Of a DNA stretch of 38,293 nt, positions 408 to 38,293 are shown one piece after another. Source of the DNA: a virus (Duplodnaviria > Caudoviricetes). Where the stretch lies: the IMG/VR virus record IMGVR_UViG_3300044676_001711, positions 1 through 38,293 of that record; one strand, given 5' to 3'. Numbering within the stretch: the stretch's first letter is position 1; each line of letters starts with the position of its first letter. Position numbers and translations under genes: made by a program. The notes beneath the pieces are model-generated. The model ran no database searches. It was given only the letters and a program-made list of their open reading frames with translations, and was not told the DNA's origin.

Positions 408-540
408 GACGGCGGCCCGAGTCAGGCGCGTAACCGATACGGCGGCCTCAATGTCCTCCAGTACTTGCGTTAGCCGTGGAAAGGTGGTAGACATTCACTC
501 GTGGCCGAAAGACGGCCACAAGCTCAGAAAGGGAGAACCC

Positions 541-1575: not shown

Positions 1576-1593
1576 TGATGGGAAGGAGAACCC

Positions 1594-1758: not shown

Positions 1759-1784
1759 CCAATCGCTAATCAAAGGAGATAATC

Positions 1785-2397: not shown

Positions 2398-2558
2398 CCC
2401 CGTTTGACGAGACAGAGAATCAAGCTCATGCCGACAGGCTGTATTGGGAGCAAGAGCGGCGCCGCCATGACAGTGTGGCTGACTGGGCTGACTCGGATGT
2501 AGCTCCGTCGTGGTTCGACCCGATGGATGCGGGTGAGCGGTGGGATGACGACTACTAG
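2394..2558 (+). CDS. Acidic small protein
   Basis: aaggagg RBS, ATGA overlap; MTPFDETENQ...WDDDY. Confidence 0.65.
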   Translation: MTPFDETENQAHADRLYWEQERRRHDSVADWADSDVAPSWFDPMDAGERWDDDY

Positions 2559-2569
2559 AAAGGAGGCCA

Positions 2570-4156: not shown

Positions 4157-4184
4157 CCACCTGGGCATGTGGTGAAACTGCCCA
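4157..4184 (+). ncRNA. Compact H-type pseudoknot candidate
   Basis: S1 ccac(4157-4160)/gtgg(4169-4172), S2 tgggca(4162-4167)/tgccca(4179-4184); intergenic, upstream of an RBS. Confidence 0.5.
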
Positions 4185-4215
4185 ACCAAACCAACAACGT
4201 CCTAAGGAGGACAAC

Positions 4216-4593
4216 ATGGAAATTGACGCCAATGTCAGTATTGAAATTGAGGACAGCGACATTGTTTACGCCGTTCGTTCCGAACTGGAATCAGTTATCG
4301 AATCCTACGACAGAAACAATCCGTTGCATGACCGTATCGACTGGGACTCGGCCCACAGGGCAGGTCTGATGACGTTTGAGCACACCGACGACGATGTCAG
4401 GAGCCTCATCCGAGAGATCATCGAACTGAACCCCGAGGTGCTACGCCCGATCATCGCTGCTCAGGTAGACGCAGCAGTGCTGTATCGCGTGCAAGAGACG
4501 GTGCGTAAGGAGATCACCAAGTGGGGGCAGAGCTTCGGCAACGTCCTCGCCAACATGACTCACGACAACAACAAGGAGAACCACAGTGAGTGA
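4216..4593 (+). CDS. Hypothetical protein
   Basis: taaggagg RBS, 125 aa. Confidence 0.75.
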   Translation: MEIDANVSIEIEDSDIVYAVRSELESVIESYDRNNPLHDRIDWDSAHRAGLMTFEHTDDDVRSLIREIIELNPEVLRPIIAAQVDAAVLYRVQETVRKEITKWGQSFGNVLANMTHDNNKENHSE

Positions 4594-6156: not shown

Positions 6157-6180
6157 TCCCAAACCAAGGAGAACAAGCAT

Positions 6181-6975
6181 ATGATCTACGGCAAACAAAC
6201 ACTGACAGACCTGTCAGAACAAGTAGGAGGCGGCATAAACCCCTACCTGTTCACCAAGCAGGTCGACAGCACCAAGCTGTCACACAACGCTGACGTGACA
6301 GACCAGTACGAGCAGATCGTCTGCTACATGCTGCCCCACACATCAGCCCGACGATACTGGCTAGAGATAGTCGGCACCCCAGCCCCGTGGAAGTGGCGTA
6401 ACATCTGCCCACACTCCACCCCAGGGTGCCGAGGTGCGTGCCTCGTAGACTCAGGCCGTCTCGGTATGGCCCCAGCCAAGCGGGCCATGCTCGCCCGCAC
6501 CGCCTTGTACAGCAAGAGCCAAGAGAAGTTCTGGAGCCTCGTAGACCACGAGATCAAGCTTCATAACCGACGGGTCCGAGCCAAAGGCAAGACGCTGGTT
6601 GTGCGGCTAGACGGCACCAGTCAGATCAACATTGAGGAGCAAGCCCCGTGGATTCTGGACAGGCACCCCGACGTGATCTTTCAGGACTACCTCAAGGGGC
6701 CGTACAAGACAGGGTGGACCCGAGCCAACCGCTACGTCGTGTCGTCAGGCACCGAACGTGACACCGAAGTCACGATCAGGAACCGAGGCAACGTCGTGTT
6801 CCCCGTCAACGTGCCCAAAGGCGAACCGCTGCCGAAAGTGTTCATGGGTCGCCTCGTGACAGACGGCGACAAGCACGACCTCAGGTTCCTAGACCACCAG
6901 TACGACCGTGCCGTTCTCGTCCGAGTCAAAGGTCGTCACATTGACACTCACGGCTTCATTCGTAAGGTATCCTAA
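6181..6975 (+). CDS. GP88-like protein (C-x6-C-x3-C)
   Basis: CPHSTPGCRGACLVDSGR, VRLDGTS, FQDYLK, DGDKHDLRFLD motifs. Confidence 0.65.
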   Translation: MIYGKQTLTDLSEQVGGGINPYLFTKQVDSTKLSHNADVTDQYEQIVCYMLPHTSARRYWLEIVGTPAPWKWRNICPHSTPGCRGACLVDSGRLGMAPAKRAMLARTALYSKSQEKFWSLVDHEIKLHNRRVRAKGKTLVVRLDGTSQINIEEQAPWILDRHPDVIFQDYLKGPYKTGWTRANRYVVSSGTERDTEVTIRNRGNVVFPVNVPKGEPLPKVFMGRLVTDGDKHDLRFLDHQYDRAVLVRVKGRHIDTHGFIRKVS

Positions 6976-7017
6976 GTCCTTCGCAAGTTGCGGGACAACT
7001 TAAATAAAGGAGTAAGA

Positions 7018-7272
7018 TTGCTAAACGAAGACGACTACCACGACCTGCAAGCGTTGCTCAGCCTAGCAAGCTCAACGTTGCAGGAAGCCAAACAAACACT
7101 ACTAAACGGACCAGATCACTGGGCCAAGGAGCAAATCGACAAGATGCTGACTCAACTAAACGACGAGATCTCTGTCGCCGCCACGCTGGTGGACGAGTCA
7201 TACGTCGTCGTGTCCTCTGATGCGATGACGTTCCCAGACAAGCTAAGGGAATGGTACGACTTAGATGGGTGA
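7018..7272 (+). CDS. Hypothetical helical protein
   Basis: TTG after aaggag RBS (track ORF 6988..7272 trimmed). Confidence 0.6.
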   Translation: MLNEDDYHDLQALLSLASSTLQEAKQTLLNGPDHWAKEQIDKMLTQLNDEISVAATLVDESYVVVSSDAMTFPDKLREWYDLDG

Positions 7273-7273
7273 T

Positions 7274-7408
7274 ATGAAAAACGCGTTTGTCGAAGAACAA
7301 CAAGCAATCGAAATGACCAAACATAAGCGAGGTAAAGACTCAGACATGCAGCCAAACGAAACCCCATCCCAATGGATCAAACGAATCAAGGAGATAAATT
7401 ATGAGTGA
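7274..7408 (+). CDS. Small hypothetical protein (44 aa, not in track)
   Basis: MKNAFVEEQQAIEMTKHKRGKDSDMQPNETPSQWIKRIKEINYE* fills the gap exactly. Confidence 0.5.
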   Translation: MKNAFVEEQQAIEMTKHKRGKDSDMQPNETPSQWIKRIKEINYE

Positions 7409-7685
7409 AGAGCAACGTCGAAGCGTTCTACTGGAAGCAGAAGAAGCTGTTTGCAGCGACCGCAACAAACACTACGGCGATCCCGAAGACAACTTCAACG
7501 ACATCGCCAAACTCTGGACTGCGTACAAAAACGTACTGTTCACACGAGGCGATGTGGCCGTGTTGATGACGCTGGTCAAGATTGCACGCATGAAGACCTC
7601 GCCCGACCTCAAGGACCATTGGGTCGACATTGCAGGCTACGCCGCCTGCGGCTACCCCGCAGCGCTTAAAGACAGCAATCCATGA
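7401..7685 (+). CDS. DUF6378-family protein (all-alpha nucleotide pyrophosphatase-like)
   Basis: DRNKHYGDPEDNF..IA.LW.AY...DVA.LM.LVKIAR...DHWVDIAGYAA. Confidence 0.75.
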   Translation: MSEEQRRSVLLEAEEAVCSDRNKHYGDPEDNFNDIAKLWTAYKNVLFTRGDVAVLMTLVKIARMKTSPDLKDHWVDIAGYAACGYPAALKDSNP

Positions 7686-7771
7686 TTGATATATACATAT
7701 TTATTGTTTTTGTTTGGATATTCATGGTTGCTGCTTTGATTATTTTGTGGAAAGAACCCGATGATGGATGA
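7682..7771 (+). CDS. 29-aa single-pass membrane peptide (not in track)
   Basis: MIDIYIFIVFVWIFMVAALIILWKEPDDG*; ATGA overlap with DUF6378 gene. Confidence 0.5.
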   Translation: MIDIYIFIVFVWIFMVAALIILWKEPDDG

Positions 7772-8021
7772 CAACACTATTCCTGTTGACCGACATTCTT
7801 TGCTCAACCTGTTAGATGAAACATTCGACGTGATCGAATGGCTCATCTCAGTTGACAATCACCCGTCTGCAGCCAAAGTTGACCTTCAAGCTTTGCAGAA
7901 AGCGCACAGAGAGGTGGTGGCAGAGTTTGAAACATGGACCGTGAAACAAATCGAAGACGACTTGTCCAAGCACGACAACGTCACTTCGATATTTACCAAA
8001 CTTCAGTTCTTTAGGGAGTAA
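7761..8021 (+). CDS. Hypothetical protein
   Basis: 86-aa ORF in the coupled gene string. Confidence 0.6.
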   Translation: MMDDNTIPVDRHSLLNLLDETFDVIEWLISVDNHPSAAKVDLQALQKAHREVVAEFETWTVKQIEDDLSKHDNVTSIFTKLQFFRE

Positions 8022-8023
8022 CA

Positions 8024-8185
8024 ATGTTTAGAATCAAATCACATATTGTTGCGCTTGGCCGTGGCAAGTTCATTCCTGGCTGGGTCGTAACAAACGACGA
8101 CAAGTTTGTAGAGTGGTTCCGAACAGAATCAGAAGCTGAACGATTTATTGCACGAAAGAAAGAAGAGCTAACAAGAGATGGCTGA
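8024..8185 (+). CDS. Small hypothetical protein (53 aa, not in track)
   Basis: gggag RBS; MFRIKSHIVALGRGKFIPGWVVTNDDKFVEWFRTESEAERFIARKKEELTRDG*. Confidence 0.6.
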   Translation: MFRIKSHIVALGRGKFIPGWVVTNDDKFVEWFRTESEAERFIARKKEELTRDG

Positions 8186-8549
8186 ACCATTTAGTCCCGT
8201 CAACGGGGTATGGAAAGACATAAATGCGACCAACTGGGATGTTCTAATCGCAGAGTTTGAACAAGTACGAGAAGAACTAATACTCCACCGAGGTCCAGCG
8301 AAAGTCCAACGTATCCAGTCGTTGGCTACTTGCGTTGACACGTTGGAAACGATGCTGTCTCTGTTGCACTACGAGAAGCGACAAACTGTTCACGACATAG
8401 TGTTTTTCGGTGAACGAGGGTCAGCGTCCAAGCTGGCCCGAGAGCTAGGAGTCTCACGCCAACGGATCTCCGATCAGGCGCAGAAAGCCGCACACGAACG
8501 CCTCGCAGGACAGCACCCGATAAAAAAGGTTGCGCGCGAGGTACAGTAA
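8178..8549 (+). CDS. Helix-turn-helix DNA-binding protein
   Basis: SASKLARELGVSRQRISDQ classic HTH. Confidence 0.75.
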   Translation: MAEPFSPVNGVWKDINATNWDVLIAEFEQVREELILHRGPAKVQRIQSLATCVDTLETMLSLLHYEKRQTVHDIVFFGERGSASKLARELGVSRQRISDQAQKAAHERLAGQHPIKKVAREVQ

Positions 8550-8559
8550 CGTTACAGTA

Positions 8560-8591
8560 GGGGAGGGGGGTCCGTGAGTACCCCCCTCCCC
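8560..8591. repeat. G/C-run hairpin related to the window-junction element
   Basis: ggggaggggggt-N8-acccccctcccc flanked by acagta/cagtaac. Confidence 0.75.
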
Positions 8592-8600
8592 CCAGTAACA

Positions 8601-8649
8601 GATGATGGGGGGACGGTTTTTTGTTCTCCTTTCCCGTCCCCCCATCATC
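8601..8649 (+). ncRNA. 16-bp hairpin with anti-Shine-Dalgarno loop
   Basis: gatgatggggggacgg / ccgtccccccatcatc perfect stem; loop ttttttgttctcctttc. Confidence 0.55.
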
Positions 8650-8666
8650 ACATCCAAAGGAGAAGG

Positions 8667-9455
8667 ATGATAGAACTCAACTTACGGCAGTCGTGGATCT
8701 CAACGTTCTTACGGTGTCCTGAACAAGCCCGACAAGAACGGTACGGGCTTGTACAGCAGCAAGAGTCCAGCGACATGCTCCGAGGCAACGCAGTCCACTA
8801 CGCCATCGAAGAAGCAGGCGCAGCCAAGCTCTCTGGCAAAGACGTTGAACTAGACATGATGCTTGATGCAGCCGAGCGTTACATTGCCGACCATGCTCAC
8901 GAGGTCGAAGTTTGGCGCACCGACATAGACCCGCTAGTGGACGTGGTGCGCGCCAACGTTCAAACGTGGCACACCGAACTCAACCCGATCCTGTTTCCCC
9001 GTGTCGACGGCATCGAACGCATGTTTGTCAAGAGTATGGGTGTGCGGCAAGTCGAAGGTTTAGCGTCCCCCATCAAACTGAACTTGCTCGGCACCGCCGA
9101 CTGGATAGACGAATCAGGAATCATCTGGGACTGGAAGAATCCTTCCCGCCACTACGAAGCTTGGGAGAAGCAACGCTGGGACATTCAGTCCCATGCTTAC
9201 ACTTGGGCGCACGGTTTAGACCAGTTCAACCTTGCAGTGTTTGCCAAAGGCAAACTGCAAGTGATAGAAATCGAACGCACCGAACAACATAAACAAGCAT
9301 TCGTTGAAATGTGTTGGTCTATAGTTCCAACTATGCTTTCAAACTCGCCCACATGGCCCATGCGATGGGAAGGATGGCACTGCTCCCCCAAGTGGTGCCC
9401 CGTGTGGCAAGCAGGCCGCTGCCGAGGCGAACACCTCGGCCAAGACCCTTGGTAA
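8667..9455 (+). CDS. Cas4/RecB-like PD-(D/E)xK exonuclease
   Basis: RCP...RGNAVH...GTADWID...WDWK...WHCSPKWCPVWQAGRC (four Fe-S-type Cys); ATG after aaaggagaagg. Confidence 0.85.
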   Translation: MIELNLRQSWISTFLRCPEQARQERYGLVQQQESSDMLRGNAVHYAIEEAGAAKLSGKDVELDMMLDAAERYIADHAHEVEVWRTDIDPLVDVVRANVQTWHTELNPILFPRVDGIERMFVKSMGVRQVEGLASPIKLNLLGTADWIDESGIIWDWKNPSRHYEAWEKQRWDIQSHAYTWAHGLDQFNLAVFAKGKLQVIEIERTEQHKQAFVEMCWSIVPTMLSNSPTWPMRWEGWHCSPKWCPVWQAGRCRGEHLGQDPW

Positions 9456-9475
9456 CTAACGGAAGGAAAAGGGAT

Positions 9476-10219
9476 ATGACCAAAATCAGCGTGTCTTTCA
9501 CGCAAAAAGTTAGCGAGCAGCCATACGAAACGGCTGACTACTCGCTCACCATCGAACAGGACGTGCCAGACGGGCACGACCCTGTTGCCATCGGCAACGA
9601 ACTGTTCGCTCAAGTCAAGAGCGAAGTGCTCAAGCAGGCAGGTTGCGAGTACGACCTGACCCAAGATGGCCTCGTGATGCGGCGGTTCGAAAAAAGCGTT
9701 CGGCCCGTGCAAGCCGCTCCGCAACCCGCCACCCCAGCAGCGCCCAGTGGTGGCCCGACAGCCTCATCCGTCGCTGTCTCCTCTCCCACGGCACCCGCAT
9801 CTCCCGCCGCTCCCGCAGGAGGCGGTGGACGTATGACGGGACGAGTCATGCCACGCACTGAGTTTGTTGTCGGCAAGGACGCCGAGAAGAAGCAGGCAGC
9901 ATTCAACATCTTGGCTTTCCACCCAGCGATGTGGTCTGACGGCGTCGAAGCGTACAAAGTCAAGGAAAAGGCTGACGGCACCACTGATCTAACTCAGAAG
10001 GGAACCAGCTACCCCAACTTCAGCATCAGTGCTTCTGCAATGAGCATGGCAGGGGTCAGCGTGGAACGCGACATGGGTGTCTGGATCAACGCAGGCGACA
10101 GCAATGTGCCGCTCAAAGTCTGGGACGTGCTGAACGGAGAAACTGCCGCTGACGCACGAGAGTGGGACTGGTCTGCCCGTCGTGCTGAACTACAGCAGTT
10201 CGCCTATCAGGGGCGCTAA
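9476..10219 (+). CDS. Replication/recombination-associated protein (possible SSB-like)
   Basis: Between exonuclease and helicase; two domains joined by a Pro/Ala linker; function inferred from position only. Confidence 0.45.
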   Translation: MTKISVSFTQKVSEQPYETADYSLTIEQDVPDGHDPVAIGNELFAQVKSEVLKQAGCEYDLTQDGLVMRRFEKSVRPVQAAPQPATPAAPSGGPTASSVAVSSPTAPASPAAPAGGGGRMTGRVMPRTEFVVGKDAEKKQAAFNILAFHPAMWSDGVEAYKVKEKADGTTDLTQKGTSYPNFSISASAMSMAGVSVERDMGVWINAGDSNVPLKVWDVLNGETAADAREWDWSARRAELQQFAYQGR

Positions 10220-11196
10220 TGACTGAGGGCACAGGTGCCCTCACTGATGCTGAGATTGACGCCCTGCTCGGGGGCGTCAATCTCACGCTGGGGGCAGAAA
10301 AAGAATACAGATACTTTCGCCCAACAAGCGAGGCAGTCGACCGTTGGGTGCAGTACGCAAAAGGTTCCGAAGATTGCTTCTACCTTGGCCTAGAAGAGAT
10401 AGACCAGCGCATGCGCGGGGTTTGGCCGTCCGACGTACTTGTTGTCACTGGACGAGCACATAGCGGCAAGTCGGCAGTATTGCTGTCCTCGCTAGCCTGG
10501 AACCTGCGACAAGACGAGAACTTCCACGCCGTCATCTTCACCCCAGACGAACCAGAAGTTTTAGTCGTAGCCAAGCTTTACGCTCTGCTGTACCAACGCA
10601 ACCTTGCCGAAGTAGAACAGGCACTAGCTGTAGATGACCCGCTGTACCTCGCAGAGATCATGGAAGCCAAAGAGCGGTACTTGGACCGCATCAAAATCTT
10701 CCCCACTGCTCTCAAGTTCCCGCAAATGTCTGAAGCTATGCGTGAATGCGAGGACTACTGGCAGCATCGACCCAAGTTCGTCATGGTTGACTTTTTAGAA
10801 CAGCTACCACAAGCCTCAGGGTACGAAGGCGTATCTAAAGTCTTGAAGAATCTCAAAGAATGGACCGAAGTTGAGAACTTGCCAGTCGGTTTGATTCACC
10901 AATCAGGCAAAGGATCTACCCGAGGCAGCAGCCGAGGCATGGATGACGGCAAGTTCAACGCCGACGAATATGCCATCCTGCAACTCAACGTGTTCAGGAA
11001 ACGAGACGATCCAAAACTCACCGACACCGAAAAACGAATCCATTCAGTTTCAATCAGCTTGGACTTGTGCAAAAACAAACGTCCACCATGTCACATCACA
11101 TCTCCCCCGATTGATTACTACATGGACCCTGACTGCGGGCTGGTTCGCACTTATTACGAGTCGGACGTGCCTCCTGATGACCGATGGATCGGGTAG
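10219..11196 (+). CDS. DnaB-like (SF4) replicative helicase
   Basis: Walker A GRAHSGKS, Walker B VMVDFLEQL, IHQ, KNKR arginine finger. Confidence 0.85.
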   Translation: MTEGTGALTDAEIDALLGGVNLTLGAEKEYRYFRPTSEAVDRWVQYAKGSEDCFYLGLEEIDQRMRGVWPSDVLVVTGRAHSGKSAVLLSSLAWNLRQDENFHAVIFTPDEPEVLVVAKLYALLYQRNLAEVEQALAVDDPLYLAEIMEAKERYLDRIKIFPTALKFPQMSEAMRECEDYWQHRPKFVMVDFLEQLPQASGYEGVSKVLKNLKEWTEVENLPVGLIHQSGKGSTRGSSRGMDDGKFNADEYAILQLNVFRKRDDPKLTDTEKRIHSVSISLDLCKNKRPPCHITSPPIDYYMDPDCGLVRTYYESDVPPDDRWIG

Positions 11197-14198: not shown

Positions 14199-14957
14199 CT
14201 AAAGAAACATGCGGTTCCATGTTGCCTTGTCGACAACGCCGTTAGCTTTCAGCTTCGCAATAAACTGGTACTCTTTGACAGCCCCAGCAGTCATGCGGCC
14301 AAAGATCCCATCGACAGGTCCGCACTCGTAGCCCAAAGAGTTCAGGTGGCGCTGTACAAGCCTGACAGCCTGCCCCCTAGACCGTTTCCACCGAGACAAC
14401 GGGTTCTTCGCTACAAGCTCTCCCAGAGCGTTGATGTAGGCACGAATACCAACCCAATCAACTTCTGGTTGGCTGTCCTGCTTGAGCGGCATGCCGCTTT
14501 GTACCCAGTGGTACAACGTCGTGCCAGGACACGACGTTGGCGCAAAGTCACGATGCCCCTTTACCCAAAGCTTATTGTCATGATTAGTTTGTATGTTAGA
14601 TACAAGCCAAGCAATAGACTCCAACGCACGTTCAGGTACTTCACCAGAACCCCACCCCGTGTAGCAAATCGACTCTGTCTTAGAGTTCCAGCCCCGAGTA
14701 GCCCCCGACACAACATTGTGCCCACGCCCCTCGTAAATGACGCCGTCAGCGTCCACAAGCCAGTTGTAGGCGATCCCTCGCCATCCACGGGTACGCATGT
14801 GGTAGCGCTCAAAGCTCTTCACCTGGGCAGGCCCAGGCTGAGCAGCCCGCACTCCCGAATGGTGCAGCACAATCCCCAACGTGCTGCGACGACGAGTAAA
14901 CGGTTTCGCAGGAGGAACAGCGTTCCAACCTTGACGGCTAATAACAGTCTTGCTCAT
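14199..14957 (-). CDS. Endolysin: PGRP/Amidase_2 N-acetylmuramoyl-L-alanine amidase plus PG-binding domain
   Basis: IVLHHS, GWRGIAYNWLV...IYEGRG, GHRD...TSCPG; C-terminal VDGIFGRMT..AVKEYQ...NGVVD..TW. Confidence 0.92.
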   Translation of the reverse strand: MSKTVISRQGWNAVPPAKPFTRRRSTLGIVLHHSGVRAAQPGPAQVKSFERYHMRTRGWRGIAYNWLVDADGVIYEGRGHNVVSGATRGWNSKTESICYTGWGSGEVPERALESIAWLVSNIQTNHDNKLWVKGHRDFAPTSCPGTTLYHWVQSGMPLKQDSQPEVDWVGIRAYINALGELVAKNPLSRWKRSRGQAVRLVQRHLNSLGYECGPVDGIFGRMTAGAVKEYQFIAKLKANGVVDKATWNRMFL

Positions 14958-17900
14958 TAGTATTTCCTCAAAGCTTCCCGACGACGATCATCTGCTGCTT
15001 TAGTATACATTTGACGAAACATCTCATTGCGTTTCTCTTTCGGAGTGTTCACACGCAAACCAACTCCCAAAGTAAAGTTCAAAAACGTCGCGATTTGCTT
15101 AGCAGCATCTGATCGTTCCCACTTTGGCTCTGATATCGGGTCTAGCCGCGACCAGTTAGCCAACACAGGGATGAACTGCTCAACCCCATATGCCTGCTTG
15201 TCTGTCATCAACAAAGTCCCTTTGTTAGAACGCTCAGCTAAACCAGCAACTTGCAAAGCTTGAGCCATAACAGGCACATTCGCCCACTTCGGAGCAGGCT
15301 TCAACTCGTCTCTAAACGGAACCTGATTGAACGTCCTAACACCCAACATTGCTTCAATCGGGAACCTAAAGTGCGGAATCGCTGACTCCATAGGAACCCG
15401 ACCAATTGATGTCGCAAACTCTAAAGGGTCGCTCAAAGTTTCTTCGTCCAAACCTTTAGACCAGTTCGCCAAATCAGCGAACGGCAACGAAGGCAACATG
15501 TAAGTACGATGCCCACCAACCTTGAACGGCAACCGAATCCCCATGTTCTCCCCGAAGTAGCTAGGAACCACTCCCTCTTCTGGAGAATGCAACTCAAGGT
15601 TCGCTTTCAACCGACCTACACGGTTCCAAGCCGTCGGGTTCCGAGCAACCGACTCAAGCAACATAGGCATCGCCCGACGCTGCCACGTCCAGAACGGAAT
15701 AAACGTCTTCGCCCCAACCTCAAACGCAGTCAAATCAGTGTAATCAAAGTGATACTTGTAAACCTTTTCCAACGCTTCGTTTACAGAACCGCCTCCCATC
15801 ATTGTGTGATGGGCAAGACTCCCCCGAGCCATAAACTCTACGTCAGCGTTCCAGCCACGAATAGCAGTGAAAGGTTTGAAGTCAGCAGTTGGTTTCAAAG
15901 TACCAGCTTCAAAACCAGTCTTAAAACCTCGTCCTTCGATCACTTGGCCTTCGTTTACAGCAGAACGAATGTCAATACCACGACCGCCAGTACCAGCCGC
16001 AATACCCGAGTCGTACCATTCCTTAAACGTCCGCAACTCGGCAACATCAACAGTGCCGCCGCCCGCCATAGCAGACATCTTCAAACGGTTCTTAGGATTA
16101 GCAGACTGCTCAATCAAAATCCCCAACCCTGCAGAAACGTTGCCGTCTCCAGCTTTCATCGCAGCGTCACGAATGTTATGAACCCGTCGGAACTGCGACA
16201 ACGGCACCCCAGCCAACTGGTTATTCATCCACATGGCACCCAGCATGTTTCGCATCACGAAACCAGGCGTACCAACAGCCTGCGCTTTCCACCAGTTAGC
16301 TAACCTTGACGCACCCCGCAAGAAACCATTTAGCTGAGCAGGATCAGCAGTACGAGCCATCGCCTCAAACACTTCAGAGAAAACCAACGCCATCTCTCGT
16401 GTCTGCTCAGCAGTCAAATTAGCGCTCAACGGGGCAACAAACGACTGCCCCGTCAACTTCGACTTAGTGATGTTGCCGACACGAGGAGAGAACGTGTCAT
16501 CAGCGCCAACCTTGAACGTGTGCAGCAACATGTCAGCTATGACGCTTTCGGCACCTTCCATGTACAAGTCAACAAAGGCTTGGTTGCCTTGACCTTTCGC
16601 AACTGCTCTCAAAGCCTCAACAGGGTTCTCCGCAATGTCCAACGCAGCAGTAGTGTCGCCTCGCGACGCAGCCTTACGGGCTGCGTTGCGACGCTGAGTC
16701 AAAGAATCAGGGCCATCAAACAAAGCAGCCCTAATCAGCACACGACGGTTGCCCTCGTTCTTTACGTTTCGAGCGATCTCTTGCAGTTCCTCAACCTTGG
16801 CATCAATCTCCGATTGAATACGAACAGTCTCAGCTTCAAGTTGCTCCATCGTTTCCCGCACAGCAGGAGACTTTCGCGTCAACTTCAACCGTTGATCCAA
16901 CATTGAATCAATCATCAAATCCAGATCAGTCTGATACTCTCTGCGAAGCAGCCCAACCAAAGCGTCAGCATCCCCGATTGACTGCTCAACCGCATCAACA
17001 AGCTGCTGGTTAGGAACAATGTTCCCCAAACGGTTCTGCATCAACCGCAGGTTCTCGATCGTCTCCAACACCGCCGCCTGCGCCCGACCAGCAGGCGAAT
17101 CATCCAACGTCGCAAGAATACGGCCCATGTAGTCAGCGCGTTCTTCGCCCATCAAAGTCCGCAGCGTTGTCCGATCACCCTGCCCAGCTAAAGGCTGACT
17201 CTTCCAACGGATGTCCCAACCGATACTGCCACCCTTCCAATCAATCGACACCAGACGGCCATCAGCAGGCAAATCAGTAATAGAACCCGCAACCCGACGG
17301 AGATCATCAGACAACCCCCAAACGCCAATCATATCTTCAAACAACTGTCGCTGAGCCTGAGCCATCAACTCAGGATCGCCCAACGCCGCCAACCCCCGAC
17401 CAGCGATAAGAGTCGGATCAAACGCCTCAAGATTGCCTTTAATATTGTCAGAGATAAACCGAAGCTGCTCAAACACCTCGTCTAGCTCCGCTGCTTGGTC
17501 CTCAAGCATCTTGCGAATAGTAGCTGGCCGCATGCGACCGCCAGTCTTCACGTTACGACCAGTTTCTAACTGAGCCAAAGCCGCACCAATCTGGTTGCGT
17601 TGCGTCTGCAACCGTCCAGCAATCAACTGCAACTCATGCAGGAACTCGGTAGCCTCAGCCAAAGCCTCCAAACGGGCGTCATTGTCAGCAACCAGCCGCT
17701 GAATCTTGGCACGCTGAGCCTTCGTAAACGGGCCAGTAACAGCATCCCGCCAGCCCTCAGCATCCAACAAATCTCTTGCCCCAGCCGACAACCCCGTGTA
17801 AAACTTGCCATTAGCAGCAGCGTTCAAAACCTCAAACAACGTGTTGATTTGAACTTCCATGTCAGCGACTTGTGCGGCTAATTGCCCATCAGTGCTAGCC

Positions 17901-20185
17901 AACCAAGCACGAACATCTGCTTCGCTAAAGATCCCGTCTTTCTTAGCGATCTCTGCAAGAATATTAGCAACTTCGTCTTCGTCCATTTCGGCGTCAACAA
18001 GCGCTTTACGGAGATTAGTTAACTCTAGCTCAGTAGCCTGCAAACGCTTATTGAAAGTTTCAATACGAGAAGCCAAATCACCTTGTTTAAGTTTGTTACC
18101 GCCAATCATGTAACCTTTATTTTTGACAAGTTTCAGAAGCGTTTGAGAACGAATGTTCTTCGTCATCAAACTGATATAACGAGGCAGCACAACCGAAGCA
18201 TCATCCGAAAACTTAAACAACCTTTTCGGATCAATATCAGTAGCTTCCCGAGCAATCTTTGCCATCTGATTCAAAATGTTGCTGTCATCTAGCGGCACGC
18301 CCGCATAAACATTCGTTGAAATAAACTTGTCTTTGCCGTAACGAACGCCGTTAGCAATTTCTTCGTCTAGAACTTGTTCAAAAGTCTTAGGTTTCCCTGC
18401 ATCTTGACTAGCTAAAACCTTGGCTTCTATACGATCAATATCATCTGCATACGCTCGTACTTCAGCTTCAGAAACTTTGTTTGTTCTAGCGTCGTTGATG
18501 CGTTGCTTTATTTGTTTAGGCGTCAACAAACGACGAGAATGCGTCGGCGTGCCACTCAACGTTTTATTGTCCAACGGGATGCCATCCATCTCGGGATCAA
18601 CCCGAGAAGCATTCCCACGTTTAAACTCAATGTCGTCTCTCATCCGAGACGCATAAAAGAAATCGTTTAGTTCGTCTTCAGGAATACCTGCCCGACGACC
18701 AGCAGACTTCCACCACTCCTTAGCCTGGGCAACAAACGGACTAACTTCAGCAGATCCATCTGCACCTACGTTAATCCAGCGAGCCAACGCTGGGTTAGCC
18801 AAGATTTCTTCGTCTGTCGAAGTCGCTGCGTAAAACATCAACGAATCAAGATCTTCGCCTTGAATCCCTGCCGTCCGAAGATCTCGTACCAGCCGATCTA
18901 ACTCATCAGTAGTTTGCTTGTTCCAACGCAAAGCCGCAATAGCTGCCTGATTGCCGCTACGTTCAACATCAAACACCACCCGAGCAGTTTCAGTTTCAAC
19001 GCCACGTTTAGCGTTGATTATGCTTCCTTTACTGTTGAACTTCCTAAGAAGAGAATCCATCTTCGGAGCCAAAGCAACTGCAGTTACGCTCCTGCCAACA
19101 CCCCCGCCAAGAGAACCTACAATCTTTGACGTAGCGTTTTGTACGGCAGCATTACCAAACGGCTTAGCAATAGGCAAACGTGAAGCCTTCCGAGCAGCCT
19201 CTTCAATAGCGTCCTTCAACACGCCCTGAGGAGCTTCACCACCCGTCATGCGAGCAACAATTGCATCAGCGTTCTTAGCTACATCAAACCCATCGTCGCT
19301 TAACAACCAAGGCGACCTAGCCAACGTCGCAACCCTGTTACGAGCCGCTCTTTCCCCCAACTTCGGAACAATAGAAGTCAAAGGCCGTTCAACAATGCGA
19401 CGACCGATACGGCCAGTTCCTGGCAACGAGAAATGAATGCCACGGTTTACGCCAAGTTCTTCCATCACCAAAGGCTTCTTGGCAACAGCAGAAAGAGTGC
19501 CTTCGCGACGCACAATATCGAACGTCTCAAGCAAATCTTGCGCCCGACGACTCTGCGTAGCAGCTTCAGCAACGTTGCCTGCCTTCCTGGCAGTTTCAGC
19601 AGCTATCTCAGCGGTCCTAGCAGCATTAGACAAAGTCACCGCCACATCAGCAACCCGAGCCGCCCGCAACACCACACCAGCACCAAACGCATACGTCAAC
19701 GGGTCCAACGCAATATCAAGCCCCAACCCGACCACGAAGTCCAAAGGCCCAGGAAGATCAACCCCCCAGTCCCTCAGAACCTCGCTCGCCATAATGTTGT
19801 CTTGTGCTTGCTTATACCACTCAGACAAAGACGCATCGCCATTGCCAAAGATATCCCCAACTTCTTTGATAGTGGACATCAAATACGCCCGAGGCGCATC
19901 CAATAGGTCAAGCGCTGGACCAAGAACAGGAATATCAAAAATACCGCCGCCAGGCTCTGGTGGAGCAGTTTTCAACGGAATCAGATTCTGAGACTGCAAC
20001 CCCCCCAACATCTCTTTACGAGACTGTATGCCGCCATAAGGCAACTGAACAATCGCAGCAGGAGTGTTGAACGTTTCAACAAGATTCGTGTTTGAGTACC
20101 CCAACTTTGCAGACAAATCAGAAACATCAATTAATTGTTTTGGCGCAGAAACAGCTTGAGAAATCTCTGAACGACTAAGAGACAT
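14957..20185 (-). CDS. Large internal virion (ejection) protein, 1742 aa
   Basis: Size, helical composition and position after tail genes; LDIALDPLTY and FDYTDLT.FE...FIPFWTW motifs typical of podoviral inner-core proteins. Confidence 0.7.
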   Translation of the reverse strand: MSLSRSEISQAVSAPKQLIDVSDLSAKLGYSNTNLVETFNTPAAIVQLPYGGIQSRKEMLGGLQSQNLIPLKTAPPEPGGGIFDIPVLGPALDLLDAPRAYLMSTIKEVGDIFGNGDASLSEWYKQAQDNIMASEVLRDWGVDLPGPLDFVVGLGLDIALDPLTYAFGAGVVLRAARVADVAVTLSNAARTAEIAAETARKAGNVAEAATQSRRAQDLLETFDIVRREGTLSAVAKKPLVMEELGVNRGIHFSLPGTGRIGRRIVERPLTSIVPKLGERAARNRVATLARSPWLLSDDGFDVAKNADAIVARMTGGEAPQGVLKDAIEEAARKASRLPIAKPFGNAAVQNATSKIVGSLGGGVGRSVTAVALAPKMDSLLRKFNSKGSIINAKRGVETETARVVFDVERSGNQAAIAALRWNKQTTDELDRLVRDLRTAGIQGEDLDSLMFYAATSTDEEILANPALARWINVGADGSAEVSPFVAQAKEWWKSAGRRAGIPEDELNDFFYASRMRDDIEFKRGNASRVDPEMDGIPLDNKTLSGTPTHSRRLLTPKQIKQRINDARTNKVSEAEVRAYADDIDRIEAKVLASQDAGKPKTFEQVLDEEIANGVRYGKDKFISTNVYAGVPLDDSNILNQMAKIAREATDIDPKRLFKFSDDASVVLPRYISLMTKNIRSQTLLKLVKNKGYMIGGNKLKQGDLASRIETFNKRLQATELELTNLRKALVDAEMDEDEVANILAEIAKKDGIFSEADVRAWLASTDGQLAAQVADMEVQINTLFEVLNAAANGKFYTGLSAGARDLLDAEGWRDAVTGPFTKAQRAKIQRLVADNDARLEALAEATEFLHELQLIAGRLQTQRNQIGAALAQLETGRNVKTGGRMRPATIRKMLEDQAAELDEVFEQLRFISDNIKGNLEAFDPTLIAGRGLAALGDPELMAQAQRQLFEDMIGVWGLSDDLRRVAGSITDLPADGRLVSIDWKGGSIGWDIRWKSQPLAGQGDRTTLRTLMGEERADYMGRILATLDDSPAGRAQAAVLETIENLRLMQNRLGNIVPNQQLVDAVEQSIGDADALVGLLRREYQTDLDLMIDSMLDQRLKLTRKSPAVRETMEQLEAETVRIQSEIDAKVEELQEIARNVKNEGNRRVLIRAALFDGPDSLTQRRNAARKAASRGDTTAALDIAENPVEALRAVAKGQGNQAFVDLYMEGAESVIADMLLHTFKVGADDTFSPRVGNITKSKLTGQSFVAPLSANLTAEQTREMALVFSEVFEAMARTADPAQLNGFLRGASRLANWWKAQAVGTPGFVMRNMLGAMWMNNQLAGVPLSQFRRVHNIRDAAMKAGDGNVSAGLGILIEQSANPKNRLKMSAMAGGGTVDVAELRTFKEWYDSGIAAGTGGRGIDIRSAVNEGQVIEGRGFKTGFEAGTLKPTADFKPFTAIRGWNADVEFMARGSLAHHTMMGGGSVNEALEKVYKYHFDYTDLTAFEVGAKTFIPFWTWQRRAMPMLLESVARNPTAWNRVGRLKANLELHSPEEGVVPSYFGENMGIRLPFKVGGHRTYMLPSLPFADLANWSKGLDEETLSDPLEFATSIGRVPMESAIPHFRFPIEAMLGVRTFNQVPFRDELKPAPKWANVPVMAQALQVAGLAERSNKGTLLMTDKQAYGVEQFIPVLANWSRLDPISEPKWERSDAAKQIATFLNFTLGVGLRVNTPKEKRNEMFRQMYTKAADDRRREALRKY

Positions 20186-35300: not shown

Positions 35301-35326
35301 CCTAATAGAAAGATGTGCGTGTCCCA
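35301..35326 (-). promoter_or_regulatory. Putative late promoter motif TGGGAC-N16-TAGG
   Basis: At the 3' end of the terminase nuclease gene. Confidence 0.55.
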
Positions 35327-35985
35327 CGCACGTTGCGTGCTCCTATACGCATGTCATTTGGCTGAGGGTCATTTGTAGCTAACCTAGCAAACCAATCAAC
35401 CGTCCAATAGTCATCGGTTTCTGAAGCATACTCTGGTGCGTGAGCGTACTTTCGCATTTGATTAGCTAAAGCCAACGCCATAACACGGTCGTCATACGGC
35501 GAACCCGACATGCCGCCACGGTCGTTGCGTACAAAAGTCCGCAACTCGGCCAACGTGTGACGGTCATAAATCGTTAGCTCAAAGTTTCGCAACGCAGAAG
35601 ACAAATCGTCAATCATCAACGGTTTCGACGTGCGAGTAGTTTTCCAGCCAAACTCTTGCCCAACAGTGTTCGTTATGCTGTTCAACTGGCGGCGACGGTA
35701 CATCTTTGGGTAACCTAAATGTCGCAACTCAGTGATCGTCGTCAACCCGTGGTTGTTAGACTCTACGCAGCACAAAGCATCCCTATACCACAGCCCGACT
35801 GCGTAAACCTCTTCAGCAAGCAAATCGGGGGCGATATGGCCGTGCCAAATAGCGCACTGCTCCCCAGTCCCCACGTCTAGCACTTGAATCACGCTGTAGT
35901 CGCCGTGACCCAACCCCTCAGCCGTATCTACGCCCATAACGTACGCATGATGCGGTTCTGGGTAGTGCCAAACCTCTAAACTCAT
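35302..35985 (-). CDS. Terminase large subunit, nuclease (RNase H-like) domain as a separate gene
   Basis: YVMGVDTAEG...GDYS, VESNNHG, YDDRVMALALA; ATG overlaps the ATPase TGA (ATGA). Confidence 0.85.
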   Translation of the reverse strand: MSLEVWHYPEPHHAYVMGVDTAEGLGHGDYSVIQVLDVGTGEQCAIWHGHIAPDLLAEEVYAVGLWYRDALCCVESNNHGLTTITELRHLGYPKMYRRRQLNSITNTVGQEFGWKTTRTSKPLMIDDLSSALRNFELTIYDRHTLAELRTFVRNDRGGMSGSPYDDRVMALALANQMRKYAHAPEYASETDDYWTVDWFARLATNDPQPNDMRIGARNVRGTRTSFY

Positions 35986-36872
35986 GCCGCTCGGAACTCC
36001 ACAACGTTGCCCAAACGCCACATATCGCCTTTATCGCCGTAACGCACCTGCGATTCCAACTGATCTAACACGTCCAAGTCAAAAACAGGGTTACCTGACT
36101 TTACAAACGCCTCTTCAGGCGTTGTCGGATACTCCTGAGCCAACTGCCACGGCAACATTGACTCACGTTTGTCCTGATACCACGCATCTCCACGGTCTTC
36201 AGTCGCAGACCACGGAAAAAACATAGGAGCAAACTTGTTTGTGCCCGCCGTAGCTCCCACCCAAAGCTGATGGTAAAAGTTTCCTGACCCGTTAGCAGTC
36301 GACAACCCGATGATTCGACCACCAATATCGGCAACAGGCTCAATCGACGCCCACGCATCCTCGGGATTCGGCAAGAACGCCCATTCATCTACCACAATAA
36401 GCGACGCAGACTCGCCACGGGCAGGGTCAGACGCAGACGGCATCGACGTAATCTGAGAACCATTATCAAAAGCCATGCGCTGCTGGTGCTCAACCAGCGA
36501 GCGTGGCCCTCTCTCCAACATCCACTCAGGCAAATGCTTCTGCCCATACTTGGTTTTCTTCAACAACAACACCGATTCACGCTCCGTCCGAGACAAATCA
36601 ATGATGTTCTGATCCGAATGAAAGTACGCCAACCAGAACTGATGTGCTGCCACCAGCGTTGACCAACCAATCTGACGTGCTTTCAACGTCAAACTGTACC
36701 GTTGGCTAGCCCACTCCTTCAACGCATGCCTCTGAGCATCACGCAACTCAAACAGAATACGACCCTGAGCAGGATGCGCTATGTGCCAATAGTTCTCTAA
36801 AAAATAGCGTTCATCTTTGACGCAACGCCGCCACTCAGCCTCACGCTTCAGTTCAGAAAACGAATACGACAC
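35982..36872 (-). CDS. Terminase large subunit, ATPase domain
   Basis: LRDAQ Q-motif, Walker A LKARQIGWST, Walker B LIVVDEWAF, LSTANG. Confidence 0.9.
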   Translation of the reverse strand: MSYSFSELKREAEWRRCVKDERYFLENYWHIAHPAQGRILFELRDAQRHALKEWASQRYSLTLKARQIGWSTLVAAHQFWLAYFHSDQNIIDLSRTERESVLLLKKTKYGQKHLPEWMLERGPRSLVEHQQRMAFDNGSQITSMPSASDPARGESASLIVVDEWAFLPNPEDAWASIEPVADIGGRIIGLSTANGSGNFYHQLWVGATAGTNKFAPMFFPWSATEDRGDAWYQDKRESMLPWQLAQEYPTTPEEAFVKSGNPVFDLDVLDQLESQVRYGDKGDMWRLGNVVEFRAA

Positions 36873-38253: not shown

Positions 38254-38293
38254 ACTGTATACAGTGGGGGGAGGGGGGGCAGCGCCTCTCAGC
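38254..38293. repeat. Left arm of a G/C hairpin completed across the window junction (positions 1-11)
   Basis: actgtatacagt palindrome then ggggggaggggggg; the window starts cccctcccccc. Confidence 0.7.

Follow-up and report, generated by a model that had tools for sequence, protein, structure and literature searches.

The replication operon of a complete 38-kb phage record is preceded by a real, conserved and uncatalogued plus-strand RNA element, a hairpin termed HP2, whose open loop is complementary to ribosome-binding sites (RBSs) of the same phage; comparison across relatives, which form a widespread family of uncultured aquatic phages, indicates that the loop and the RBS sites have changed together in evolution. 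We consider HP2 a likely antisense RNA, a judgement held with a little more than even confidence, whose loop would mask a private class of phage RBSs in trans, so that the adjacent nuclease and some of the early genes would be translated less. Positions given below are those of the window, by which we mean the whole 38,293-nucleotide stretch of DNA that was analysed.

In the window, small early genes occupy the plus strand up to 8549 and the replication operon follows on the same strand from 8667 on, in the order PD-(D/E)XK nuclease, a gene with no assigned family, DnaB-like helicase, AEP primase, RusA and a sigma-like protein; the structural genes lie on the minus strand. A blastn search of positions 7000-11000 against cultured phages gave zero matches. 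Three relatives' loci lie in metagenome-assembled genomes (MAGs) labelled Actinomycetota/Acidimicrobiaceae, labels that may be binning artefacts, and these give a weak hint of an actinobacterial host for the phage family. Both MAGs carrying relatives are devoid of a 16S gene, and the host anti-Shine-Dalgarno (anti-SD) sequence was taken from 12 loci in other genomes of the likely host order, the host itself being unproven; the 16S 3' end read GAUCACCUCCUUUCU, the canonical form, in 12 of 12. The proxy host genome has a GC content of 34%, whereas that of the phage window is near 53%. Several features of the record stand apart from HP2: the terminase large subunit appears as two overlapping open reading frames (35302-36021 and 35982-36872), each matching terminase profiles, which may reflect a frameshift, a sequencing error or a true split; a 1742-aa late reading frame at 14957-20185 has no Pfam or PHROG match; a hairpin-like sequence, CTGGGCATGTGGTGAAACTGCCCA, lies at 4160-4190 between the DUF932 gene and the next RBS; and the palindrome AAGGTGGTAAACGTTTACCACCTT occurs twice (384-406 and 1549-1572), each time ahead of an early gene start, as a candidate operator.

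HP2 (8601..8649, plus strand) consists of a perfect Watson-Crick stem of 16 bp (8601-8616 paired with 8634-8649) that presents a 17-nt loop, UUUUUUGUUCUCCUUUC, at 8617-8633. The first-pass annotation had described just such a perfect 16-bp stem presenting a loop, and its coordinates hold throughout. The fold has a z-score of -4.2, with equal stability reached in 0 of 200 shuffles; the window has no other perfect stem of 16 bp, and none of 100 dinucleotide shuffles of the window contains one. The loop is predicted to be open, with unpaired probabilities of 0.8-1.0, and its anti-RBS seed (8622..8633, plus strand) is formed by the GUUCUCCUUUC side, whose UCUCC has a U at the one base where the CCUCC core, as read from 16S tails of the likely host order, has a C. 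A search of 8300-8900 against Rfam 15 returned 38 weak matches, all far under the gathering threshold and mostly to generic miRNA hairpins, and the exact loop pattern was found in zero viral contigs. Nor does HP2 resemble an intrinsic terminator: it has no U-tract (the 8 nt that follow contain at most two T in 49 of 53 cases) and was not listed in a terminator scan of the window. A discrete RNA is therefore no more than a candidate, and HP2 may act instead as a leader of the replication mRNA. The literature consulted, largely open-access main text without supplements, holds no description of the HP2 element.

To follow HP2 among relatives, the nuclease was used as a probe of viral, metagenome and genome collections, with three of the scans yielding the best 80 of 181, the best 80 of 132 and the best 80 of 112 hits. 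The nuclease start could be placed in 194 loci including the window; partial nuclease hits were dropped, as were five loci with less than 110 nt upstream, and the remaining 189 loci with at least 110 nt upstream formed 38 clusters at 90% identity, with many near-duplicates among the matches listed. A hairpin of 10-23 bp stands near the nuclease start in 175 of the 189 loci listed and is missing from 14, and CUCC or CUCU lies in or at the hairpin loop, ahead of the same nuclease gene, in 173 of these 189. The loop core reads UCUCCC(U) in most relatives and UUCUCCUUUC in the window. The stem, by comparison, is free in sequence: among 58 distinct stems, every one of the 12 pairs closest to the loop is represented by 5-6 pair types, and in eight close relatives all 80 cells pair, with double changes at 3 of 10 pairs. 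Thus a search of related phages, which the first-pass annotation had put forward as a check, finds a loop retained while its stem diverges. A second seed hairpin was sought in 50 loci, and none was found in any of seven loci of cluster 17, any of four of cluster 10 or the one locus of cluster 14 that matches the HP2 type, most of these loci being short.

The manner in which the stems vary differs between HP2 and a second hairpin upstream of it. HP1 (8560..8591) is a 12-bp GC-rich palindrome lying over the predicted transcription start of a putative housekeeping-sigma promoter (8530..8558, plus strand; TTGCGC, 17 nt, TACAGT), which is called from sequence and ends one base before HP1. A strict promoter scan of the window did not list this site; across relatives, most clusters have a TANNNT hexamer immediately ahead of HP1, and a TTG frequently stands 17-18 nt upstream of that hexamer. 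HP2 stems contain 114 G-U and 0 A-C pairs among 732 positions and fold better on the plus strand in 60 of 67 cases, whereas the same hairpin finder, which accepts G-U and limits mismatches, gives for HP1 in 55 distinct relatives 526 Watson-Crick and 23 G-U pairs at 550 positions and no strand preference (26 versus 24). The excess of G-U pairs and the strand preference in HP2, and not in HP1, indicate that HP2 is under selection as RNA and HP1 more probably as DNA; HP1 is probably a DNA-level promoter or operator element, a 5' stem-loop, or both. The palindrome of HP1 (TACAGT/TACTGT with GGGGGAGGGGG...CCCCTCCCCC) recurs across the genome ends (38259-38293 and 1-30), where it precedes the first late gene on the minus strand (TTGTGT-17-TACTGT). 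By their sequences, a dyad immediately behind the -10 box seems to be common to middle and late promoters, and the phage helix-turn-helix or sigma-like protein is a candidate to bind it.

The nearest potential partner of the loop is the RBS of the nuclease gene (8667..9455, plus strand; PF12705, E 3e-9; phrog_69), the first gene of the replication operon: positions 8624-8632 are the exact complement, over 9 bp, of 8656-8664, which carry the nuclease RBS AAAGGAGAA. That site lies in the loop of a weak 5-bp hairpin (8651..8669, plus strand) that includes the AUG, an arrangement of SD and start codon also seen in leaders L069, L192 and L186; its stem shows a compensating change, ACGC/GCGT to CCGC/GCGG, in clusters 2-4, and the small hairpin could make a loop-loop contact. 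Further predicted target RBSs on the plus strand are an 11-nt match at 6166..6176 before the GP88-like gene at 6181, 9-nt matches at 1583..1591 (gene at 1594) and 4573..4581 (gene at 4586), and 8-nt matches at 1772..1779 (gene at 1785) and 2558..2565 (gene at 2570), with 7 perfect pairs plus a G-U (-13.8 kcal/mol) at 529..537 before the first early gene (541). The 6166-6176 site pairs at -16.1 kcal/mol, the best among 12,555 sampled windows. The cis complementarity and the matches of 11, 9, 9, 8 and 8 nt had all been proposed in the first-pass annotation, and every one is confirmed. The motif AAGGAGAA occurs six times in the window against 0.92 expected, a count reached in 0 of 100 shuffles; three copies precede early starts, one precedes the nuclease, one lies within a coding region (2687) and one, on the minus strand, is the loop itself.

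Complementarity to the loop is distributed unevenly among gene classes, although a good part of the difference is not specific to this loop. Perfect matches of at least 8 nt occur at 5 of 21 early starts, 1 of 7 starts in the replication operon and 0 of the 21 late starts that were correctly placed, in keeping with the earlier remark that several late genes have RBSs with shorter complementarity. Mean pairing with the loop is -11.1 kcal/mol over 21 early starts and -6.2 over 24 late starts, but a generic anti-SD gives the same trend (-10.1 and -6.5 kcal/mol), so that simple SD strength accounts for much of the early-late gap. When SD-led starts alone are compared, the loop does better than the anti-SD on early genes (19 starts) and worse on late genes (10 starts; p 0.004); over all starts of the window the loop-specific excess has a p of 0.045, while the generic anti-SD separates early from late with a p of 0.0002. 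A ranking of pairing energies over the phage RBSs, as proposed with the initial observation, places early and nuclease RBSs above late ones, a difference that within the SD-led set exceeds what generic SD strength explains. GGAG is followed by A at 40 of 41 nuclease, 128 of 340 early and 7 of 70 late starts, late starts being A-poorer at neighbouring positions as well.

The pairing of loop and RBS in evolution was examined by a swap test, in which each cluster's own loop and the loops of other clusters were compared on the same starts, with two leaderless clusters excluded from the SD-led set. Pairing is stronger with the own loop than with swapped ones at the nuclease RBS (z -4.5, 26 clusters) and at early starts (z -3.8, 460 starts in 31 clusters), and late starts show no such preference (z +0.5, 135 starts). 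Because clusters are kin, these p-values are optimistic, and gene starts were called by a simple rule favouring purine-rich leaders; with tree-based merged groups the values are p 0.0006 for the nuclease, 0.006 for early and 0.78 for late starts, and the early signal drops to p 0.053 once six clusters are removed. By these sequence comparisons the nuclease is the best covarying predicted target. No single early gene family covaries alone as a fixed target (0 of 10), nor does gene 2, the second gene of the operon, reach significance (z -1.3; p 0.11 with merged groups). At least 7 perfect pairs are found at 21% of early starts with the own loop and 13.5% with swapped loops, against 2.2% and 2.2% for late starts; the corresponding early figures are 33% versus 7% in the window's group and 39% versus 11% in clade 7. 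Matching early starts are only about a fifth to a third, and most early starts do not match. Several different compensating flanks appear on separate branches of the tree (CC/GG, GCU/AGC and UAU/AUA), along with a change from C/G to U/A inside cluster 19. Clusters 0, 6, 18, 20, 28-31, 35 and 36 have mismatches between the nuclease RBS and the flank or core of the loop. GGAGA is present at the nuclease RBS in 139 of the 146 loci listed from the SD-led branch.

The start region of gene 2 (9476..10219, plus strand; a conserved protein of 247 aa) is purine-rich and often reads GGGAGA in relatives. In most of them this GGGAGA follows the nuclease stop codon directly, often with a second AAGG before gene 2, and the conserved double purine site may couple translation. 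A whole-protein model of gene 2 shows two folded domains joined by a Pro/Ala-rich linker, of no known family; a fold search gave a best Z of 4.5, and the Sak/Rad52 rows (Z 3.4-3.6) are weak and restricted to the N-terminal beta-beta-alpha part. In autogenous translational operators of the SSB type, such as that of T4 gene 32, the operon encodes a single-stranded-DNA-binding protein that binds its own leader.

Two branches of the family offer natural experiments. In the first, the L077-L118 branch, GGAG precedes the nuclease start in only 4 of 43 loci and the start falls about 6 nt after a -10-like hexamer; this second promoter-like site (CTGTCACA ... CATACT, 6 nt, ATG), directly behind HP2, would make the nuclease leaderless. 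HP2 is retained in 31 of these 43 loci, the other 12 being without the loop, and early starts of the branch show no excess of loop matches (0-6%). In the second, clade 8 (four loci), HP2 is absent before the nuclease and GGAGA has been lost from the nuclease RBS in 4 of 4, against retention in 139 of 142 other loci of the SD-led branch. A different hairpin with an anti-RBS loop, UAUUAUCUCUCUCUUUCCC, lies 1.8-2.6 kb upstream in the three clade 8 loci that are long enough (L145:4700-4760, L141:4930-4990 and L011:275-335), between a stop codon and a new promoter-like site, and has a short T-rich tail; it is distant from the nuclease, to whose RBS it shows no match. In L145, 12 of 15 early starts match the clade 8 loop by at least 7 pairs, against 1.2 for other loops; GAAAGAGAG occurs at 10 of the 15, and GGAG is kept at only 2. 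These early leaders nonetheless retain pairing with the terminal bases of the 16S tail, at a mean of -9.4 kcal/mol. This hairpin was found by searching for such loops, with the leader match lying outside the search criteria, and represents one event; it may be a relocated HP2 or an independent element, homology to HP2 being a candidate relation. To judge from its sequences, clade 8 gives the strongest sign that the loop and a dispersed set of RBSs evolve together.

The adjacent RBS covaries most strongly, pairing by up to 13 bp in cluster 23, and a competing explanation is that HP2 gates the nuclease alone, in cis: a frayed stem, or a 5' arm that is removed or held elsewhere, would free the loop for the RBS of the same mRNA, and the early matches would be a by-product of a shared RBS style. 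We regard this as unlikely, albeit the best of the alternatives. The first-pass annotation had drawn a cis pseudoknot, which with an intact stem is unlikely on geometric grounds. H-type pseudoknots can form only if the linker that follows stem 1 spans this stem (PMC6007934, in the part accessible); by a geometric estimate a 16-bp helix needs at least 7-8 fully stretched nucleotides, and the window has 6. Across 48 distinct leaders the linker measures 0-4 nt for stems of 13-19 bp in 16 and at most 7 nt in 26. With a linker too short to cross the stem, pairing with the adjacent RBS is most simply intermolecular. The element fits poorly as an SD-sequestering leader of the H-type: its loop-SD complementarity (9 bp, covarying) is what such a leader would show, but the linker is too short in the window and in many other leaders, and HP2 is not always followed directly by an SD. 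An unknotted alternative fold with the stem opened is 25 kcal/mol worse, whereas fraying of 4-6 bp costs 8-10 kcal/mol, close to what the 9-bp pairing could repay, which leaves a frayed cis form in the window marginal but possible; linkers of at least 18 nt in 12 of the 48 leaders, and a seed placed at the loop's 3' end, which in most cases leaves 0-2 nt before the stem, as in stacked pseudoknots (PMC6007934, in part), would also suit it. Against a cis gate on the nuclease, HP2 persists where the nuclease has no SD, the clade 8 hairpin is distant from a nuclease RBS that it does not match, and for most members of the window's group early sites are a better fit to the loop than the neighbouring RBS is.

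It is also conceivable, although improbable, that no RNA-RNA regulation takes place, the loop being a protein-binding or processing site whose likeness to RBSs stems from purine-rich leaders and from local copying by template switching. The loop and adjacent RBS do form an inverted repeat some 25-30 nt apart with imperfect matches, the early leaders are rich in A and G, and no single early family covaries; local copying, however, cannot produce the clade 8 match to sites across 6 kb, nor a swap signal at early but not late starts. Less probable again, to a degree that makes us doubt it seriously, is a positive role, in which the RNA would stabilise matching mRNAs or help to initiate their translation, guiding, for the phage alone, leaders that no longer resemble the host SD closely. 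The clade 8 leaders have indeed diverged from the 16S core in the direction of the loop, yet they still pair with the end of the 16S tail, the duplex would cover the SD position, the element lies downstream of the genes that it matches and is presumably made after them, and characterised loops of this kind repress. A DNA-level role for the hairpins, as a replication origin or primase start site, fits the position before the replication genes, the AEP-type primase of the operon and the behaviour of HP1 as a DNA palindrome, but is very improbable for HP2 in view of its G-U pairs, its strand preference and a loop that tracks RBS sequence.

Under the antisense reading that we favour, transcription from the promoter at 8530-8558 would cover about 85-90 nt up to the end of HP2, and this RNA would exist on its own or form the leader of the replication mRNA. 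Its long stem would hold the loop open while being too long for that loop to reach, within one molecule, an RBS six bases downstream; pairing would then occur between molecules, or over long range within read-through early transcripts, and would grow with RNA concentration. The UCUCC that replaces the ribosome's CCUCC would favour GGAGA sites, as at early genes and the nuclease, over the GGAGG sites of late genes. The expected outcome is a partial brake on early translation, together with negative feedback on the nuclease, as the replication operon switches on. This would narrow the initial proposal that early translation is silenced: it would apply to the subset of early genes that matches the loop and is not supported for early genes as a whole, of whose starts 21% reach 7 pairs. 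The further suggestion that host translation is silenced finds no support in 200 kb of one proxy host genome, where 0-7 of 192 starts match any of 11 loops, although only 21 of these 192 have GGAG and SD-led host genes could still be hit. In an estuary metatranscriptome, contigs 99% identical to the phage fall on 25 of 30 bins, with none over 8005-8670, a region in which contigs cannot show a short structured RNA. The deepest RNA contig listed for that run lies on gene 2 (9476-10219).

Among characterised RNAs, the closest in design are the cuckoo/alpha-r14 sRNAs of Alphaproteobacteria (RSs0680, NfeR1), which carry 2-4 hairpins, each with a CCUCCUCCC loop (passages of PMC4615179 and PMC10746234); according to the accessible part of the latter, NfeR1 loops block translation in reporter assays, in trans and without Hfq. 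HP2 shares with them variable, compensating stems and a fixed pyrimidine anti-SD loop, and differs in having one seed hairpin, a far longer stem, a phage-borne location and a UCUCC core whose flanks are retuned clade by clade. Membership in that family was considered and rejected, with a score of 13.4 bits to ar14 against a gathering threshold of 58.8 and a single seed hairpin in place of the CCUCCUCCC set. In phages P1 and P7, the c4 antisense RNA blocks translation near an RBS through loop-borne complementarity (PMC12197685, as far as available). That RNA has one dedicated target, the ant mRNA, and HP2 has no Rfam match to c4. C-rich-loop sRNAs of Gram-positive bacteria, such as RsaE/RoxS and RNAIII, also pair a loop seed with SD sequences; these are host regulators with UCCC seeds, whereas HP2 is encoded by, and tuned to, a phage. 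In its predicted job HP2 corresponds to the T4 endoribonuclease RegB, which inactivates the early mRNAs of that phage at their GGAG sites (PMC1702504, in excerpt). RegB is a protein nuclease, however, and HP2 would be an RNA that masks rather than cuts. To our knowledge, how early translation is shut off in phages without RegB-like proteins is largely an open question.

A comparable arrangement is found in mycobacteriophages of cluster K, whose start-associated sequence (SAS) is a private motif in the RBS position before non-structural genes, with a role stated as unknown from 2011 to 2024 in the accessible parts of PMC3203893 and PMC11373665; the former also records in K1 phages one unexplained reverse copy. 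We located this reverse SAS at 58682-58694 in Adephagia and 59870-59882 in Anaya. It forms there the open loop of a long hairpin, which follows another hairpin of 16-17 bp in the stretch separating genes 92 and 93, a region in which late transcription has been reported to start (PMC11373665, in part). The literature covered for HP2 contains no description of an anti-SAS loop either. The 92-93 hairpin region is present in 146 phage records; of ten that were folded, six keep CCUCCUAU, one has a variant and three lack such a motif, with the loop less clearly open in two. The reverse copy is absent in Pixie and Keshu; TM4 and Pixie carry 11 and 19 SAS, respectively, with no reverse copy within 2 mismatches, which indicates that SAS does not require the loop and counts against a general requirement. 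As with SAS, the five plus-strand copies of AAGGAGAA all lie in the early/replication arm and the one reverse copy is the loop; unlike the strict 13-mer present there in 11-19 copies, the window motif spans 8-11 nt at about 5-6 starts. We treat the K1 SAS loop as an analogue of HP2 and not a homologue, the likeness being one of arrangement, with no claim of sequence homology.

These parallels allow a broader, tentative proposal, which we rate as somewhat short of an even chance, that phages use a private RBS code in which a lineage-specific RBS tag marks the early class and a hairpin RNA of the next stage switches that class off, as might also hold for the K1 SAS. Such a code would be an RNA counterpart of T4 RegB, with tag and loop rewritable together and the hairpin free to move, as clade 8 suggests, and it would account for SAS by making the single reverse copy a hairpin loop at the start of late transcription. 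The comparative evidence assembled here, that one RNA loop evolves jointly with a set of RBSs and that one clade has rewritten both, can be carried through the K1 analogue into a cultured phage, where the idea becomes testable; if it is borne out, a hairpin of about 50 nt able to read an RBS class would also offer a compact means of controlling translation in actinobacteria.
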